Shown in pieces: positions 42,490 to 59,420 of a DNA stretch of 64,000 bases. The number at the start of each line of letters is the position of its first letter. Within the stretch, counting starts at the first letter, position 1. Made by a program: the position numbers and the translations under genes. The notes below the pieces were generated by a model. It did not search any database and was not told where the DNA came from. It was given only the letters and a program-made list of their open reading frames with translations. The DNA lies in IMG/VR virus record IMGVR_UViG_3300028197_000002; one strand, written 5' to 3'. This stretch comes from a virus. Its lineage: Duplodnaviria; Caudoviricetes.

Positions 42490-45003
42490 ATGGCTTGGTG
42501 GGATTTCTACAAAATTTGGACTTATGAATTTGAAAAAGGACCTTTAGAGTTATCTAAAATTTCCAAAGATTCTCAAATAACCGGCGCAGGAGTAACTGTT
42601 CCTGATGCCATGCCGGATTTGCGGGGAGAATTATGGAGTGGAGGAGCTAAAGGCCAAGTTCGACTTCATGACAGTAATGACTTTATTGATCTTTCTACTG
42701 TTACAAATAGACAGTCCAGATATAACGAATACGAAAGATTAAGAAACATACCAGAAATAGAAATGGCTATGACCACTATTTCTGATGAAGCTTGCGTTGC
42801 TGGAGATACTAAAATCTCCACTCTATTCGAAGGATACGTTCCGATAGAAAAGTTAGCAGCACGATGGAAAAAAGATCCAAGTCCTTTTCTTGTTTATTGC
42901 TGGGACTTTGAAAAACAAGACTACACTTTAGGTTGGGCTTATGATCCTAGATTTGTAAAAAGAGAAAAAACATTAAAAATAAAATTAGATGATGGAAGTC
43001 ATTTCATAGTCACAGCTGACCATAGGATTCTTGATGCAGATCAGAATTGGATTAACGCTGGAGATTTGAAAGAAGGCGGGGAGATTATGCCTTTTTATAA
43101 AATTAATCCTAATAGGTCTTTAAATAAAATTATTCATAACCAATTTCCAAGGATTTATACGAAAAATGGATGGAAAAATGAAAGACAATTCATAGAAGAT
43201 TGGAAATCTAATGGGTCTAATGAAAAACAAAAAGAAGTTCAGAAAGCCATAAGACTTTTGTCAAGTGGAGCTAGCACAAGACAAACAGCAGACATGATGG
43301 GGAGAAGCTGGCCTACGTTAGATTCTTGGATTAAAAAAGAAGGATTTACTACCAAAGAATTAAAATGGCTAGGAGAAAAAAGAAAACAAAGGAAAATTAT
43401 AGGCATTCAAGAATATAACGAAATGAATGTTTATGATCTTTCTGTAAAGAATCACAAAAATTTCTGTACCGACTCAACAATCATGCATAATTGCCAAAGA
43501 GACGATTATAATAATGTTTTGGAAATAGAGTGCGGCAACGAAGAAGTTAAAAAAGAGCTTGAGTTTTTATGTTTTAATAGAAAAATGTTGAACATAAATA
43601 GAAAAGCTTGGTCTATGGTTAAAAGACTTTGCATTTTTGGAGATGGTTTCTATGAACTAATAACAAATCCAGAAAGCCCAAAAGACGGCGTTTTAAAAAT
43701 GCAAGAGCTTCCTCCTGACTCTATGTATAAAATCGTCACTACAAAAGGAAAATTAGTAGAATTTCAACAATCTAAAGAAGGACCTGATTATCAATCCTTA
43801 ACAAGAGGCACTATAACAAAAGCTACAGATTTAGAATTAATGCAATCTACTGCCATAAGATTTAGTCCTCATCAAGTGGTTCATATGTATTTGGGCGAAG
43901 ATAGGAAAACTTTTTATCCATATGGTCAGTCATTGGTTGAACCTGCCCGAGGGCCAGCCCATCAGTTAAGATTAATGGAAGATGCAATGGTGGTTTACAG
44001 ATTAAGTAGAGCACCAGAAAGAAGAGTTTTTTACATTGATGTTGGACAACTTCCTCCATTTAAAGCAGAGGCTTTTGTGGAAAGAATGAAAGATCAATTC
44101 CGAAAAAAGAAGACGGGCCGTCAAGGAGGTCCGAACAACGCCAATGTTGTTGAGGAAAGATGGTCAGCACCAGCAGCAGATGAAGATTATTGGTTGCCTA
44201 TTCGACCTCAAGCTAATACAAGAATAGAAACATTACCGGGAGCGCAAAATCTAGGAGAAATAGATGACGCCCTGTATTTCAGAAACAAGCTTTTTACTGC
44301 GCTTAACTTTCCTAAAAATTACATAAACACAGAAGATCCTAATCAAACAAGAATAACTCTTTCTGCTCAAGATGCTAGATTCGCAAGAATGGTAGAAAGA
44401 ATTCAATCAAGTATAGAAGATGGAATTCTTCAGATATGTGAAACCCATTTAGAGATGAGAGGATTTCCATTTGATCAGTATGAAAATTTAAAAATTAAAA
44501 TGACTCCGCCAAGTGCTTGGAAAGAACTAAGTGAAGCGGAAATTCAAAATAATAGAATAAACGTAGTAACACAATTAAAAAGCTCTTTGATAATGTCAGA
44601 CTACGATTTATTAACTAAATTCATGAAATATACTGAATCTGAGGCTGAAGGTATTATATCTCGCAATAAAATACAAAAATTGGAAGATCTAAAAATTCAA
44701 GTTGTTGGACAAAATCCTCAATTATTAGGAGTAGGCACTCCGGGAAATAATGAAGAAGGAACAGAGATAGGAGTTAATGCAGAAGGTCCAAATCCGATGC
44801 TCGGAATAGATGGAGAAAATCAAGAATCTGGACAAGAAGGAACTCCAAATTTAGAAGATATGTCTGATCAGGGGTCAGATGCTAAATCTAATGTTGAGCT
44901 AGAATCTCCCTCAGATGAAGAAATTAAAAAATATGATTTGGGAATAGAAAATTATAATAAAACAGTTGATGATGAAGTAATTGACTGGAGCGAGGAGGAA
45001 TAA
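42490..45003 (+). CDS. gp20: Portal protein (T4 gp20-like) containing an intein
   Basis: QLRLMEDAMVVYRLSRAPERRVFYIDVGQLP, EDYWLP, IETLPGAQNLGEIDD; T4-like head-module position. Confidence 0.95.
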   Translation: MAWWDFYKIWTYEFEKGPLELSKISKDSQITGAGVTVPDAMPDLRGELWSGGAKGQVRLHDSNDFIDLSTVTNRQSRYNEYERLRNIPEIEMAMTTISDEACVAGDTKISTLFEGYVPIEKLAARWKKDPSPFLVYCWDFEKQDYTLGWAYDPRFVKREKTLKIKLDDGSHFIVTADHRILDADQNWINAGDLKEGGEIMPFYKINPNRSLNKIIHNQFPRIYTKNGWKNERQFIEDWKSNGSNEKQKEVQKAIRLLSSGASTRQTADMMGRSWPTLDSWIKKEGFTTKELKWLGEKRKQRKIIGIQEYNEMNVYDLSVKNHKNFCTDSTIMHNCQRDDYNNVLEIECGNEEVKKELEFLCFNRKMLNINRKAWSMVKRLCIFGDGFYELITNPESPKDGVLKMQELPPDSMYKIVTTKGKLVEFQQSKEGPDYQSLTRGTITKATDLELMQSTAIRFSPHQVVHMYLGEDRKTFYPYGQSLVEPARGPAHQLRLMEDAMVVYRLSRAPERRVFYIDVGQLPPFKAEAFVERMKDQFRKKKTGRQGGPNNANVVEERWSAPAADEDYWLPIRPQANTRIETLPGAQNLGEIDDALYFRNKLFTALNFPKNYINTEDPNQTRITLSAQDARFARMVERIQSSIEDGILQICETHLEMRGFPFDQYENLKIKMTPPSAWKELSEAEIQNNRINVVTQLKSSLIMSDYDLLTKFMKYTESEAEGIISRNKIQKLEDLKIQVVGQNPQLLGVGTPGNNEEGTEIGVNAEGPNPMLGIDGENQESGQEGTPNLEDMSDQGSDAKSNVELESPSDEEIKKYDLGIENYNKTVDDEVIDWSEEE
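42793..43491 (+). mobile_element. Intein (233 aa) in portal, no intact endonuclease, HTH-like insert
   Basis: N-splice EA|CVAGDTKI, block B VTADHRI, block F VYDLSV..HKNF, C-splice IMHN|CQR with Cys+1. Confidence 0.92.
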
Positions 45004-50151: not shown

Positions 50152-50277
50152 CTAATCAGCTTTACTTTTTCTATTTTTAATAACTTTGGATTCTTCTCTT
50201 TTTAGTCCATAAAGCATTAGTAATGCAATTCCTAATTCAATTGCCCATGCTGTTATTCCCGCAAAAAATGCTTTCAT
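50152..50277 (-). CDS. 41-aa membrane peptide
   Basis: MKAFFAGITAWAIELGIALLMLYGLKREE...; directly follows the dipeptidase; not in the ORF track. Confidence 0.4.
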   Translation of the reverse strand: MKAFFAGITAWAIELGIALLMLYGLKREESKVIKNRKSKAD

Positions 50278-50279
50278 TT

Positions 50280-51464
50280 TTAATTTTTCCAACCATTTTC
50301 TAGTATTCTCATAGCATTAGAATACATTATTTTGTTTATAGTAGAATTGTGATATCCCATGCCTTCTAGGTATCTAACTATCCAAGGAAGATCTTCAACA
50401 TATGCTATTTCATCTGGAGGATCTGTAAATCCGTCAAAATCCGTACCTATAGCTGGAACTTCTTCTCCAGCAACATTTATTATATGATTTAAGGTTGATT
50501 CTACGTGATGAAGTCCTGACCCTTCTGGCTTGTGGGGAGAAAGCCAGTAATTCATAAATATAACACCTACAGTGCATTTTCTTTTAGCAAACCATTTAAG
50601 CTCATCATCAGATAAATTATACGGAAGTCTATGAAGTGCTTGTACGCCTACATGAGAAGCTATTACAGAGCAGTCTTTGTCGTAATCATCAACTATATTG
50701 TAAACATCTTGTCGGCCTTTAGGAGTTAAATGAGAAACATCTATTATCATTCCTATTTCTAGCATCTGCTTTGCTATTCGTTTTCCTAACTCTGTTAGTC
50801 CATATCTTTCATCCCAAGTTCTTCTTAAACTTACATAATTTTTAATTGTTTTTCTTTCTGGTTCTGGGTATGGGAAAACGCAAGATTTAGTTAATGGATT
50901 ATTATAAAAATGAGCGAGAGTAAGATAAGCACAACCTTTTTCACTTAGTTTATTCAAACATTCTGTAATCGAATATTCTGAGGATACTAGTGAATGACCT
51001 CCCTCGACAGAATGCACAACAGAAGAAATTCCTTTTTCTTGATTTTCAAACAACTCAATAGGATTTCTAGCTATTTTAATTCCAACTTCTTTTGAAATTT
51101 CTTTTTCTAAAAAATCCATCATTCCAATGCAAGCTTCATAAGGACTTGGATTCAATATTCTCTTTCTAAATAAAGGAGAAAATTTAGAAAGAAATTTTAT
51201 AAGTGGAACATCATTTAGCCATTCTTTTTCTAAAACATAAGTTGTAGCAAGAGTTACATTGATATTATCTCTGAGCAAAGGAATTGTACTTCTTTGACTT
51301 AAAGGCCAAAAACTATCTCTAAATAATTTTCCTAAAAACTTTCTTTTACTCAATGTTCTTTCAAGCATATATCCTTTTAAATGAACATGATTATGCAAGT
51401 CTACAATCTTTACTGGGAAATCGCTTGCAATGTGTCTGTCTGTCTTAAGCATATTACTAATCAT
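50280..51464 (-). CDS. Membrane dipeptidase (M19, amidohydrolase fold)
   Basis: DLHNH, HSVEGGH, LTLAH, DVSHL, ASHVG, IGTDFDG, KIMYSNAMR. Confidence 0.9.
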   Translation of the reverse strand: MISNMLKTDRHIASDFPVKIVDLHNHVHLKGYMLERTLSKRKFLGKLFRDSFWPLSQRSTIPLLRDNINVTLATTYVLEKEWLNDVPLIKFLSKFSPLFRKRILNPSPYEACIGMMDFLEKEISKEVGIKIARNPIELFENQEKGISSVVHSVEGGHSLVSSEYSITECLNKLSEKGCAYLTLAHFYNNPLTKSCVFPYPEPERKTIKNYVSLRRTWDERYGLTELGKRIAKQMLEIGMIIDVSHLTPKGRQDVYNIVDDYDKDCSVIASHVGVQALHRLPYNLSDDELKWFAKRKCTVGVIFMNYWLSPHKPEGSGLHHVESTLNHIINVAGEEVPAIGTDFDGFTDPPDEIAYVEDLPWIVRYLEGMGYHNSTINKIMYSNAMRILENGWKN

Positions 51465-51520
51465 ATGTACACTTTCTAAACAGACAACAATAACCTAAGT
51501 AATTTAAAATGTAAAGTTTA

Positions 51521-51565
51521 AAAATAAAAAAAGCCGGTTAACAACATTTCTATTGTTAACCGGCT
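51521..51565 (-). terminator. Intrinsic terminator closing the ncRNA
   Basis: 13-bp stem agccggttaacaa/ttgttaaccggct, with a U-run on the minus strand. Confidence 0.85.
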
Positions 51566-52545
51566 CTCTTAGGCAGAACTTTCAATTTTCAATCCGCTAA
51601 TCTTTTGGGACAAACGAATCGAGCAAACATAGTCCATCACTGTTATTGTAGTAAATCACGGGTACGTTTCTGCCGTTGTGCTTTTAAACACACCCTTGGC
51701 TTATTTTGCCAACCCATGAGTGATAGTCGTAGTCTTTTAGCAACTCACTTTTCCTTAGCACTAATCAATTTCTTGCAGAATACTTGCCTGTTACCAGCAG
51801 CCCCTTCTGCGATTCTTTTCATAGTGATCCAAATTAATTTACTCCTAAAATTTACCACAACTTTCCTGTTATTATCGTGTTCAGGCAGACACGTCGTTTC
51901 TAAGATCTTTTTTGCGATGTTTACACATCTGATCTAGGCTCAACATCATTATTCACTACCGCCGTAGTTGCTCTGCACAAGGCAGAGGGCTTATCGAAAA
52001 CAAACTACTGAGTTTTCGATTTATCCCATGATGCTTATAGGATTGTTCTCAAGTTCTTTTGAGTTACTTTTCTTTCAAAAAATAATGCGTTCTCAAATTT
52101 CTTTAAGTCATTTGCCAGACTTTAATTTTATAACTATTTCTAATTATAAAATTTATAACCTAGCCATCCCATAACCGAAGCTCATCGTAGAGTTCCAAAA
52201 AGACTCTGCTATTATTAAAAACAATTTCGAATGAAGTTATTTTATAATTAGCACATTCTTGCGAATGTACTAGCTTCAAGATTAAGGCACTCTTGCGAAT
52301 GCAAAACCTTTCAGCAATAGTTCGATCCTTTCGTTCTGCTTCTACTAAGAATTTACAAACTTAGCTTTCACAGACCCAGCTCAAATAGGGTTTTGGCTTT
52401 TGTACTTAAAAATCTGCTTTCACAGATAATTAACCAGCCCTACGATTTATTTTTTTCACAAGCATCTTTCGATACTTGCAAGGACTTTTTTCAATTGTCA
52501 AAGATCAATTCAATGAGTTGTTGCTTCCAACGTGTCATTGATGTT
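51566..52545 (-). ncRNA. Candidate large structured ncRNA (~980 nt; ROOL/GOLLD-class or novel)
   Basis: No credible ORF on either strand. Minus-strand tetraloop hairpins: GAAA (52458-52479, 52412-52427), GCAA (52287-52302, 52251-52270), cUUCGg (52171-52185), GUAA (51916-51929, 51788-51797). Further stems and long-range pairing (51572-51578 with 51668-51674). Bracketed by promoter and terminator. Confidence 0.75.
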
Positions 52546-52549
52546 TCCC

Positions 52550-52577
52550 AATATAACGATTGCGTTTCATGTTGCAA
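52550..52577 (-). promoter_or_regulatory. sigma70-like promoter driving the ncRNA
   Basis: TTGCAA (52572-52577), 16 nt, TATATT (52550-52555) on the minus strand. Confidence 0.55.
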
Positions 52578-52806
52578 GCCCCTTGTCACAAAAAAACAAG
52601 TATTTCTTTTCTACCTCTAAAAAATAAGGGCTTATGCTTTTATTTCTTTGCAAAAATCTGTTTCAAAGTCTCTTCAAAACTCTAAAACTTTTTCTTTAGT
52701 TCAATCACAAAGGCTATAAATTCAACTTTATTTTTAATATTATTATTAAAAATAAAATAAAGCTTTATTTTTAATACATATTTCCAAAGGAATTTGGAGG
52801 TATTTT

Positions 52807-53652
52807 ATGAAAATAATTATATTTTTAATTGCTCTATTCTTTGCAATTTCACCTTGTTTAGCTGGAACTATAGAACCCGGAGTTCCTGATTCAAAATACT
52901 TAAAGTATGGAGAAAAGCACAATTGCGTACTCCCAATAATGGGACATTACGCCGATTCACTAAACAGATCTTTCAAAGGATCATGTGTATTAATTAGTGA
53001 AAATTATATCTTAACTGCTGCTCATGTGGTTTATGGCTCAATGACTCAGTATGTGGTTTATGAAGGGAAAGCCTATCCACTAAGCATTGTCGCTGTTCAT
53101 GCAGGGTTTGATCCAAAAAAAATGGGAACAAATGATATCGCAATAGGAAGACTGCAAAGGCCAATAAAATTAGATTTTTATCCAGAAATTTATAATAAAA
53201 AAGACGAGAAAGGCAAAGTGTGCAGTATGGCTGGATATGGAAACACAGGAACTTTTGACACTGGTTGGAAGCCAGAAAAATACGATCATAAAAAAAGAGC
53301 TGGATCTAATATGATTTTTAATATCGAAAAAAATTGCTTGTTGACATCAGTAACCGATCCTTCTGGTACCGATCTTGAATTTCTCATAGCTCCCGGAGAT
53401 TCAGGAGGAGGTTTATTCATTGACCAGAAGCTCGCAGGAATCAATTCAGCGGTAATTGCCGCAGACGGCAACCCAAACAGCGATTATGGCGATTTGGGCT
53501 GTCACACGCGTGTCAGTGACTATGTGGAGTGGATCTCAAAAACCCAAGAATTAATTGAAGTTCTTATTGATCTAGAGGAAAAACAAAAAGAAAAGAAGGA
53601 TGAGTTGCCGGAACTACTAAAAAAAGCAATTCGATCTAGAAAAGAAAGTTAA
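52807..53652 (+). CDS. Trypsin-like serine protease with signal peptide
   Basis: ILTAAHVV, NDIAIGRL, GDSGGGL; hydrophobic N-terminus with CLA cleavage-like site; GGAGG RBS. Confidence 0.92.
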   Translation: MKIIIFLIALFFAISPCLAGTIEPGVPDSKYLKYGEKHNCVLPIMGHYADSLNRSFKGSCVLISENYILTAAHVVYGSMTQYVVYEGKAYPLSIVAVHAGFDPKKMGTNDIAIGRLQRPIKLDFYPEIYNKKDEKGKVCSMAGYGNTGTFDTGWKPEKYDHKKRAGSNMIFNIEKNCLLTSVTDPSGTDLEFLIAPGDSGGGLFIDQKLAGINSAVIAADGNPNSDYGDLGCHTRVSDYVEWISKTQELIEVLIDLEEKQKEKKDELPELLKKAIRSRKES

Positions 53653-53722
53653 TAAATTAAAATTAATTTATTTATTAATAGTAAATATTTTTGGTTAATT
53701 AACAACGAACAAGGAGGTCGTT

Positions 53723-58246: not shown

Positions 58247-58320
58247 AATGAAAATTTATAAATTTAATTTCATAAACAATATATACTTCTGTAATGAAAC
58301 TTTAACATAGGAGGTTTATA

Positions 58321-58557
58321 ATGGCTTCATTTACACTTGATTTAGTAGGTGCTCCACGTAACATGGCTAGTGAGGGTGGACTTGACACATCAATTAATTA
58401 TTCTGGTGTCTCTCTACAAAGAACTGGTTACATCGAAACTGTTGACGCTAATGGAAACAGAAAGATGAACGTAAGAGTAGCTGACGGCGCAACTTTCACA
58501 GACGTTGCTCAAGCTCTCACAGATCTTACCAATGCTGGTCACAATTTCATTGTCTAA
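58321..58557 (+). CDS. Small protein, tandem paralog 1 of 3
   Basis: AGGAGG RBS; MASFTLDL...GHNFIV. Confidence 0.85.
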   Translation: MASFTLDLVGAPRNMASEGGLDTSINYSGVSLQRTGYIETVDANGNRKMNVRVADGATFTDVAQALTDLTNAGHNFIV

Positions 58558-58597
58558 TTTTAGACATATATTATAATTTTATTTTATCATTATAATA

Positions 58598-58628
58598 GCA
58601 AGCCTCGCCTTTTGGCGGGGCTTGTTTT
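58598..58628 (+). terminator. Intrinsic terminator after paralog 1
   Basis: gcaagcctcgcc-tttt-ggcggggcttgt followed by Ts. Confidence 0.8.
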
Positions 58629-58714
58629 ATGTAGAATGGAAATTTCTAAATCCAATTTCATTTTTCATAACAGTATATAATTTTGTAATGAAACTTTAAC
58701 ATAGGAGGTTTATA

Positions 58715-58993
58715 ATGGCTTCATTTACACTTGATTTAATAGGTGCTCCACTTAACATGGCTAGTGAGGGTGGACTTGACACAACGCTCGTTAATTTTGG
58801 CGATGATTCTGCGCAAAGAACTGGCTACATCGAAACTGTTGACGCTAATGGAAACAGAAAGATGAACGTAAAAATAGCTCCTCAAGTTCATGAATGGGCG
58901 TTTCAGTCCCTTAATTTTACAGACGTTCCTCAAACTCTCACAGATCTTACCAATGGTAATGTCCGTGGTCACAATTTCATTGTCGGAGCATAA
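58715..58993 (+). CDS. Small protein, tandem paralog 2 of 3 (insertion variant)
   Basis: Same leader and RBS; carries three divergent or inserted segments. Confidence 0.85.
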   Translation: MASFTLDLIGAPLNMASEGGLDTTLVNFGDDSAQRTGYIETVDANGNRKMNVKIAPQVHEWAFQSLNFTDVPQTLTDLTNGNVRGHNFIVGA

Positions 58994-59092
58994 TTTTAAC
59001 AGTCTAGTTTTAGACATATATTATAATTTTATTTTATCATTATAATAACAGTATATAATTCTGTAATGAAACTTTAACATAGGAGGTTTATA

Positions 59093-59335
59093 ATGGCTTC
59101 ATTCACACTTGATTTAGTAGGTGCTCCACTTAACATAGCTAGCGAGGGTGGACTTGACACATCAATTAGTTATTCTGGGGTCTCTCTACAAAGAACTGGT
59201 TACATCGAAACTGTTGACGCTAATGGAAACAGAAAGATGAATGTAAGAACGCCTGATGGTGCAACTTTTACAGATGTAGCTCAAACAATCGACATGCTTA
59301 CCAATGCAGGTCACAATTTCATTGTCGGAGCGTAA
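59093..59335 (+). CDS. Small protein, tandem paralog 3 of 3
   Basis: Same leader and RBS. Confidence 0.85.
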   Translation: MASFTLDLVGAPLNIASEGGLDTSISYSGVSLQRTGYIETVDANGNRKMNVRTPDGATFTDVAQTIDMLTNAGHNFIVGA

Positions 59336-59389
59336 TTTTAACGGTCTAATTTTAGACATATATTATAATTTTATTTTATCATTATAATA

Positions 59390-59420
59390 GCAAGCCTCGT
59401 CTTTTGACGGGGCTTGTTTC
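59390..59420 (+). terminator. Intrinsic terminator after paralog 3
   Basis: gcaagcctcgtc-tttt-gacggggcttgt; compensatory base-pair change relative to the 58598 copy. Confidence 0.8.

Follow-up and report, generated by a model that had tools for sequence, protein, structure and literature searches.

The window analysed here, a 64,000-nucleotide (nt) stretch of the viral record IMGVR_UViG_3300028197_000002 (Duplodnaviria; Caudoviricetes), raises the question of what is encoded at positions 51465-52806, where 1,342 nt run without an open reading frame (ORF) of 120 amino acids or more, the longest such stretch in the window. An original prediction, made from the letters of the window, had placed there an independently transcribed and densely structured non-coding RNA of about 1 kb, read from the minus strand. 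Our analysis indicates that the locus is very probably a stand-alone gene for a very large structured phage non-coding RNA of a new class, within the kind known as large ornate phage non-coding RNAs, which would act in trans through its fold.

Conservation, transcription and detection of the RNA

No conserved protein-coding frame was found in the region. The stop codons number 11-31 per frame in the window copy and at least four per frame in every homologue, and no convincing frame was opened by reading TAG or TAA as glutamine or TGA as a sense codon (code 4). Homologues were sought with nhmmer in capsid loci, with conserved-block patterns scanned over IMG/VR and the JGI metagenomes, and with a covariance model of the core (R1) run over whole related contigs. 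The nhmmer search of 80 capsid loci returned one homologue, with the patchy block conservation typical of structured RNA. In total, 16 homologues and one distant relative (L145) were collected, all of them true matches on contigs of uncultivated aquatic T4-like phages, up to 343 kb long. The RNA measures 897-922 nt in the relatives, against about 1,018 nt in the window, and the G+C content of its core regions ranges from 37% to 62%.

The minimum free energy of the minus strand is -274.7 kcal/mol, far below the -220.4 +/- 7.2 kcal/mol of dinucleotide shuffles (z = -7.6; unrounded, -7.57), whereas the plus strand reaches a z of -2.75. From an alignment of 14 sequences, RNAalifold predicted 173 pairs, 125 of them with compensatory changes, and 234 pairs under ribosum scoring. 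The curated structure, which joins the ribosum prediction with helices from an independent covariation scan, comprises 234 pairs in about 35 helices and several domains; 92.2% of its alignment cells are canonical and 167 of its pairs covary. These values drop to 37-46% and 57-73 covarying pairs when the partner is slid by 1-3 columns, and to 40% and 60 covarying pairs (maximum 79) with random partners, while re-dealing the 3' letters within columns leaves 79.0 +/- 0.4% of cells canonical. In a MAFFT alignment built on sequence alone, 71-75% of the cells that differ from the commonest pair still pair, compared with at most 46% in shuffles, and this share is 78-80% in the 3' half and 69-71% in the 5' half. 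Within the core aligned with the model, 97.6% of all cells are paired, as are 142 of the 157 changed cells (90%); 26 of its 38 pairs and 110 of its cells change on both sides, a level reached by none of 500 shuffles. Among paired cells, G-U combinations outnumber A-C ones by 364 to 43, and therefore the minus strand is the sense strand, with selection acting on the RNA and not on the DNA. The dense conserved structure that had been expected is thus borne out by the heavy covariation among the homologues.

Marine and estuarine communities contain the RNA as a discrete molecule of at least about 970 nt. Of the words sampled from the RNA, 91-97% occur in 19 marine and estuarine metatranscriptome runs, which come from 17 studies dated 2017-2020, and this share falls to 70-75% when a flank of 150 nt is added on each side. 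Eight runs from eight studies each gave one single contig of 951-975 nt, 99-100% identical to the RNA; these contigs begin at 52515-52534 and end at 51559-51584, they have no loose ends, and none bridges into either neighbouring gene. In four runs, no RNA contig covered the flanks at 50200-51558 and 52535-53700. Word depths were 12-44 for the RNA contigs, and four other runs held pieces of the neighbouring genes of 146-215 nt at depth 2-6; as contig depth and holes cannot rank genes, these figures are no abundance ratio, and the coinciding contig ends are a weak hint. The contigs leave out the first 10 nt or so after the presumed start and end at the base of the terminator stem, which matches the coverage fall-off and the effect of an inverted repeat in k-mer assembly, so that the exact ends of the RNA are putative. 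The discrete RNA of about 1 kb that the original prediction proposed to look for in metatranscriptomes does exist, on contigs from which its strand cannot be read. Three runs from 2020 share a contig variant, in which A replaces C at 52315 and a T is inserted after 52449; it is probably a co-circulating strain.

The unit is delimited by transcription signals (Table 1). The promoter that had been pointed out on the minus strand is present, directly preceded by an A/T-rich tract and GGGGC, and it is of the kind that the host RNA polymerase uses. The hexamers TTGnnn and TAnnnT, 16-17 nt apart, lie at the same place in 12 of 13 homologues, with an A/T-rich tract ahead, and the spacer between them varies freely in sequence. 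The terminator also exists, with a longer stem than the 13 bp first assigned to it; 202 of its 204 stem cells are paired and 11 of its 17 pairs covary. Its C-A-GAAA-U-G tip is invariant, even in the homologue of 62% G+C (L144), and in every homologue this same tip is found on two hairpins of the minus strand, an internal arm (around 52140) and the terminator (around 51549). The shared tips suggest paired tetraloop contacts and, since the terminator tip is invariant and recurs on the internal arm, the terminator hairpin is probably part of the functional fold. The proposed independent transcription is upheld by the kept promoter geometry with its variable spacer, by the conserved terminator and by the RNA contigs with their coinciding ends. 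With a promoter, a terminator, no conserved ORF, a covarying structure and a discrete RNA, the locus has every feature expected of a stand-alone gene for a bacterial-type non-coding RNA.

Architecture of the fold

The positions of the structural elements are collected in Table 1, together with those of the transcription signals and of the two flanking genes. The invariant columns cluster in the 3' two-thirds of the RNA and the large insertions are confined to the 5' domain. Near-invariant single-stranded blocks recur along the molecule; beside the one close to the 5' end, these are GAACGCA, GGGAUAA, GAGCAAC and AGAAACGACG. Several invariant GNRA tetraloops cap helices, one of them at the terminator tip.

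Table 1. Positions in the window of the RNA, its structural elements, its transcription signals and the flanking genes
Feature	Position	Strand	Details
RNA	51527-52543	-	About 1,018 nt, from the inferred start at about 52543 to the terminator U-run; from alignment A3 and column mapping
Stretch recovered as one metatranscriptome contig	51559-52534		Eight studies; contigs cannot show strand
Sigma-70-type promoter	52550-52577	-	-35 TTGCAA at 52577-52572, 16-nt spacer, -10 TATATT at 52555-52550
Intrinsic terminator	51527-51570	-	17-20-bp stem, C-A-GAAA-U-G tip, U-run
5' hairpin	52509-52543	-	GNRA-type loop, GAAG here, GAAA or GAGA in relatives; compensatory changes
Near-invariant single-stranded block AUCUUUGACAAU	52494-52505	-	Kept in all homologues, including distant L145
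Long-range closing helix AGUCC/GGACU	52482-52486 with 51631-51635	-	55 of 55 cells paired
GAAA-capped hairpin H1 (first in the original prediction)	52456-52481	-	10 bp, 7 covarying pairs
5' domain, closed by AUCGUAGGG/CUCUACGAU	52184-52446	-	Closing helix of 9 bp, 8 covarying pairs; holds two insertions
Long hairpin arm with invariant C-A-GAAA-U-G tip	52114-52164	-	8 of 8 and 8 of 9 pairs covary
Most conserved core	51852-52043	-	Covariance model R1, 162.8 bits
H-type pseudoknot in the core	CGUG/CACG 51876-51893 interleaved with CCUG/CAGG 51865-51885	-	Both stems covary
3' domain	51726-51861	-	Long interrupted helix; 14-bp segment with 13 covarying pairs
CUG-GUAA-CAG hairpin inside the 3' domain	51782-51801	-	Almost invariant; stem with 4 covarying pairs
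AUCAC/GUGAU helix	51720-51724 with GUGAU of 51631-51640	-	69 of 70 cells paired; A-U to G-C in step
GGCAGAA/UUCUGCC long-range pair	51668-51674 with 51572-51578	-	Several double changes
Hairpin 3' of the closing helix	51589-51622	-	10-11 bp; 140 of 143 cells paired, 6 covarying pairs
M19 membrane dipeptidase gene	50280-51464	-	Flanks the RNA on its 3' side
Trypsin-like serine protease gene	52807-53652	+	Probable signal peptide; other flank of the RNA

The helix that closes the molecule is also predicted by the ribosum-scored RNAalifold, and one homologue (L102) carries GAUCC/GGAUC in its place, that is, two double changes. Inside the core lie the helix AGCAUCAU/AUGAUGUU, hairpins at 51994-52020 and 51955-51968 and a further helix at 51900-51937, in addition to the pseudoknot. 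Towards the 3' end, AUCAC/GUGAU and GGCAGAA/UUCUGCC would be coaxially placed according to the curated model; the counterparts of the latter are GGUACAC/GUGUGCC in L130 and GGUAUC/GAUGCC in L131.

The seven tetraloop-capped hairpins of the original prediction are all in the sequence, and the homologues tell which of its pairings matter. Compensatory changes uphold GCAAGUAUC-GAAA-GAUGCUUGU, AUCGAAAAC/GUUUUCGAU and CUG-GUAA-CAG, and multiple ones uphold the long-range pairing of GGCAGAA with UUCUGCC. The two GCAA hairpins are real features of the window copy and belong to lineage-specific, non-conserved insertions: the two insertions of the window (52343-52387 and 52263-52307), which bear the extra GAAA and GCAA hairpins, appear as gaps in all the other homologues whose sequence reaches this region (that of L134, a close relative, ends 5' of it). 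The nested helix UAGGG/CCCUA, proposed to enclose a GAAA hairpin, is not a conserved pairing; UAGGG pairs instead with CUCUA about 260 nt downstream (9 bp, 8 of them covarying).

The carrier phages and the distribution of the RNA

The source phage is T4-like, as had been recognised, with a Portal_T4 portal, a prohead protease and a Gp23-type major capsid protein encoded just upstream of the RNA locus. Its capsid protein is 75% identical to that of the uncultured 595-kb phage LR756511.1, the closest in GenBank, and it shares 79-90% identity with the capsid proteins of 80 IMG/VR contigs, the longest of 343 kb. The capsid-related contigs (L023, L035, L048, L050, L078, L084 and others) span 89-343 kb at CheckV completeness values of 18-69%; the 343-kb contig is rated 69% complete and a 122-kb contig 24% complete, and therefore genomes in this capsid clade should measure about 0.5 Mb. 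These estimates imply a megaphage of about 0.5 Mb and not an ordinary T4-like phage, which corrects the earlier description. No tRNA gene was found by ARAGORN in the 64-kb window, in agreement with the predicted lack of adjacent tRNA genes, nor adjoining the RNA in 12 homologue loci. The T4-type portal gene (42490-45003, plus strand) is split by an Intein_splicing intein that bears helix-turn-helix domains.

Different genes flank the RNA in different lineages, none of them conserved as a neighbour, and the RNA is therefore a self-contained module. In the window, it is flanked by two peptidase genes, which is unusual for a phage structural region. Relatives of the dipeptidase on other viral contigs show 39-53% identity, and the loci around them held no RNA homologue; the trypsin-like protease has no relatives in IMG/VR. 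The gap had been described as the only one of about 1 kb. It is the longest stretch of its kind and not the sole one, as a second ORF-poor stretch at 58247-59403 (about 1.16 kb; 1,157 nt) has ORFs of 78-93 amino acids only. This stretch may hold small genes or another RNA, and a 215-nt RNA-library contig (58323-58537) lies inside it.

The most distant relative, L145 (IMGVR_UViG_3300025072_002799), is a weak match to model R1 (26.6 bits) and shares with the family the 5' block, the GGGCUUCGG block, the UUGAGCCUGG...AGAAACGA core and the terminator. It was the one match among ten further related contigs (10-88% complete), the other nine of which say nothing on absence. A tRNA gene lies directly 5' of the L145 RNA on the same strand (L145 2153-2232; Rfam 35.1 bits; not called by ARAGORN). 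On the contig of L145, an ORF-free gap of about 1.9 kb (L161 763-2658) is made up of the divergent RNA relative, the tRNA and about 870 nt of further non-coding DNA. The position of L145 behind a tRNA gene suggests, as far as sequence can tell, a family wider than that sampled here.

The 50,697 GenBank phages gave no match to four different homologues used as queries (blastn, distant mode). In LR756511.1, nothing was found beside the capsid gene, and its sole whole-record model match (18.6 bits) falls in coding sequence and is a false positive. The 25 pattern matches in 185,579 prokaryote species genomes were all judged by nhmmer to be due to chance, as were, in coding DNA, the pattern matches L100, L101, L132, L133, L139 and L141. 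A scan with a 22-base pattern recovered just an already known contig, and the last pattern scan returned 44 stretches with one new true homologue.

Possible roles and relation to known large RNAs

Two kinds of explanation would make the locus something other than a new trans-acting RNA. It would be highly improbable for it to be a very divergent member of a described class, such as GOLLD, ROOL, RNase P RNA, a degenerate group I/II intron or transfer-messenger RNA (tmRNA), even with its GOLLD-like size, its phage origin, its layout of a conserved 3' and a variable 5' part, and the placement of L145 directly behind a tRNA gene. Rfam 15 (4,227 families) gave no match at gathering score in the whole window, nothing relevant at E values up to 10 in the locus (51300-52900) and six homologue loci (37-62% G+C), and nothing except the tRNA next to L145 at gathering score in four further loci. 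The models of GOLLD, ROOL, OLE, raiA, HEARO and the group I/II introns did not match the locus or the homologues tested, no RNase P family (bacterial A/B, archaeal, nuclear or T-type) was returned up to an E value of 10 for the window locus and the six homologues, and neither ARAGORN nor Rfam found a tmRNA. A group I/II intron was also rejected because the RNA has its own promoter and terminator, lies between genes without interrupting any, and shows no joint in its contigs. The absence of tmRNA, RNase P and intron signatures noted at the outset therefore holds; of the two possibilities raised then, an unusually long member of the ROOL and GOLLD kind or a new class, it is the second that stands, and no description of the RNA was found in the literature searched. 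More improbable still is a locus without a functional trans-acting RNA, namely a cis leader of the downstream gene, a DNA element (an origin or a packaging site) or the remnant of a decaying gene. The RNA does lie 57 nt upstream of the dipeptidase gene on the same strand, and in the window, L134 and L067 the capsid module is close by, which would favour a role in cis or as DNA. However, the downstream genes differ among the homologues, some being on the opposite strand, a covarying terminator ends the unit and no RNA contig bridges into the dipeptidase gene, and thus the RNA is not a leader. The excess of G-U over A-C is the signature of an RNA and argues against a DNA element, and the pattern of stops has no trace of a former frame. 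We infer that the RNA acts in trans through its fold and is neither a leader, nor an mRNA, nor a DNA signal.

How such a trans-acting RNA would work is less clear-cut, and several roles can be weighed. It would accumulate because its compact fold makes it stable. GOLLD and ROOL, which are sometimes as abundant as ribosomal RNA, were recently found to form RNA-only nanocages (PMC12286853). By analogy, it is possible, if doubtful, that the RNA forms a compact RNA particle, perhaps a homo-oligomer; such a particle would be held together by conserved tetraloop and loop-loop contacts and would serve to scaffold or sequester a component of the infected cell. Another role, in our view somewhat unlikely, would be that of a ribozyme or of the RNA component of a ribonucleoprotein, which would process RNAs of the phage or scaffold a phage or host protein and would not be an RNA-only particle. 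The many near-invariant single-stranded blocks, of which AUCUUUGACAAU, GAACGCA, GGGAUAA, GAGCAAC and AGAAACGACG are examples, are typical of active or protein-binding sites. The covarying closing helix, in which the 5' AAAGUCC block pairs over a long range with a 3' block, recalls helix P4 of RNase P (AAGUCC/GGCUU), a likeness of 5 bp that is a lead and not diagnostic. The ornate RNA OLE, which forms a dimer, works with protein partners (PMC12286853). Against this role, no neighbouring gene is conserved as a candidate partner, the window and the GC-rich homologues match no Rfam model of a ribozyme or of RNase P even with E values up to 10, and the RNA contigs bear no self-cleavage signature or internal joint. 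A decoy or sponge, an abundant stable RNA that soaks up a host factor (ribosomes, an RNase, an RNA chaperone or an RNA-sensing defence protein), seems to us clearly unlikely. The A/T-rich tract upstream of the promoter suggests strong early transcription by the unmodified host polymerase, full-length contigs occur in many metatranscriptomes as opposed to short pieces of the neighbouring genes (with the caveat on contig depth given above), and the ribosome binding reported for GOLLD would fit a decoy (PMC12286853). Nevertheless, sponges rarely need some 35 conserved helices, a pseudoknot and a closed global fold, and no binding motif is repeated here except the two identical GAAA-tipped hairpins.

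Several observations weigh against a new stand-alone RNA gene whose product folds into a particle. The promoter match by itself is no better than chance in such an A+T-rich region (9 sites against 5.9 expected), so that its weight comes only from its conservation among the homologues. About a quarter of the changed cells are unpaired in the full-length sequence-only alignment, a share explained by alignment errors, by a number of incorrect helices in the variable 5' domain, or by both. The RNA evidence consists of assembled contigs, in which strand, exact ends and abundance relative to the phage mRNAs are not read directly. Many GOLLD and ROOL genes adjoin tRNAs, whereas 16 of the 17 loci here, all except L145, have no tRNA neighbour, and none of the conserved loops was found to be self-complementary in a way that would require pairing between molecules.

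In its broadest form, which we advance tentatively, our proposal is that this RNA is the founding member of an unrecognised class of giant phage RNAs (about 1 kb, larger than GOLLD) that builds an RNA-only assembly, or the core of a new ribozyme or ribonucleoprotein, during infection by half-megabase marine and freshwater phages, with a wider superfamily hinted at by L145. The covariation support is unusually clean, and the RNA was seen in natural ocean and estuary samples across many independent studies. Its carriers are ecologically widespread aquatic megaphages whose biology is almost unstudied, in which the RNA offers a marker of active infection in metatranscriptomes. From a practical point of view, the sequence, the boundaries and the 17 natural variants make it a directly usable target for cryo-electron microscopy and biochemistry.

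Among known systems, bacterial RNase P RNA is alike in being multi-domain and GNRA-rich and in pairing a 5' block with a 3' block over a long range; the RNA described here differs in being about 2.5 times longer and in its partner strand GGACU, which is without the bulged U, and no other conserved region of RNase P was recognised in it. OLE and raiA are also large, highly conserved and structured bacterial non-coding RNAs, yet they are chromosomal, in Bacillota and Actinomycetota, rather than phage genes, and neither model matches. ROOL (Rumen-Originating, Ornate, Large) is likewise a large ornate phage non-coding RNA; it has about 580 nt, against 900-1,018 nt here, it gives no model match, it is usually found near tRNA islands, unlike this RNA, and it inhabits the gut, the rumen and phages of Firmicutes as opposed to marine and freshwater megaphages. 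ROOL has multiple pseudoknots, can be highly abundant and is without a known protein partner (PMC12286853).

GOLLD shares the largest number of features with this RNA: it is borne by phages or prophages, occurs in aquatic metagenomes, exceeds 800 nt and has many helices, pseudoknots and conserved GAAA loops (PMC12286853). In general, GOLLD and ROOL are phage-borne and very large RNAs whose 3' part is better conserved and which bear conserved GNRA loops as well as kissing contacts (PMC12286853). The better conserved 3' part and variable 5' part of GOLLD have a counterpart here that is a similar trend, not a shared architecture. The differences are that the GOLLD model does not match, that the RNA described here is longer (0.9-1.0 kb), that its helix layout is closed by a long-range helix between the 5' and 3' parts, and that its carriers are T4-like megaphages. 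As ornate phage non-coding RNAs are a functionally undefined kind, the distance from known systems could prove larger. To our knowledge, very few natural RNAs beyond ribosomal RNA exceed 600 nt and are structured throughout. Each of those found so far (RNase P, group II introns, OLE, GOLLD and ROOL) has revealed a new capability of RNA, and the one described here is longer.

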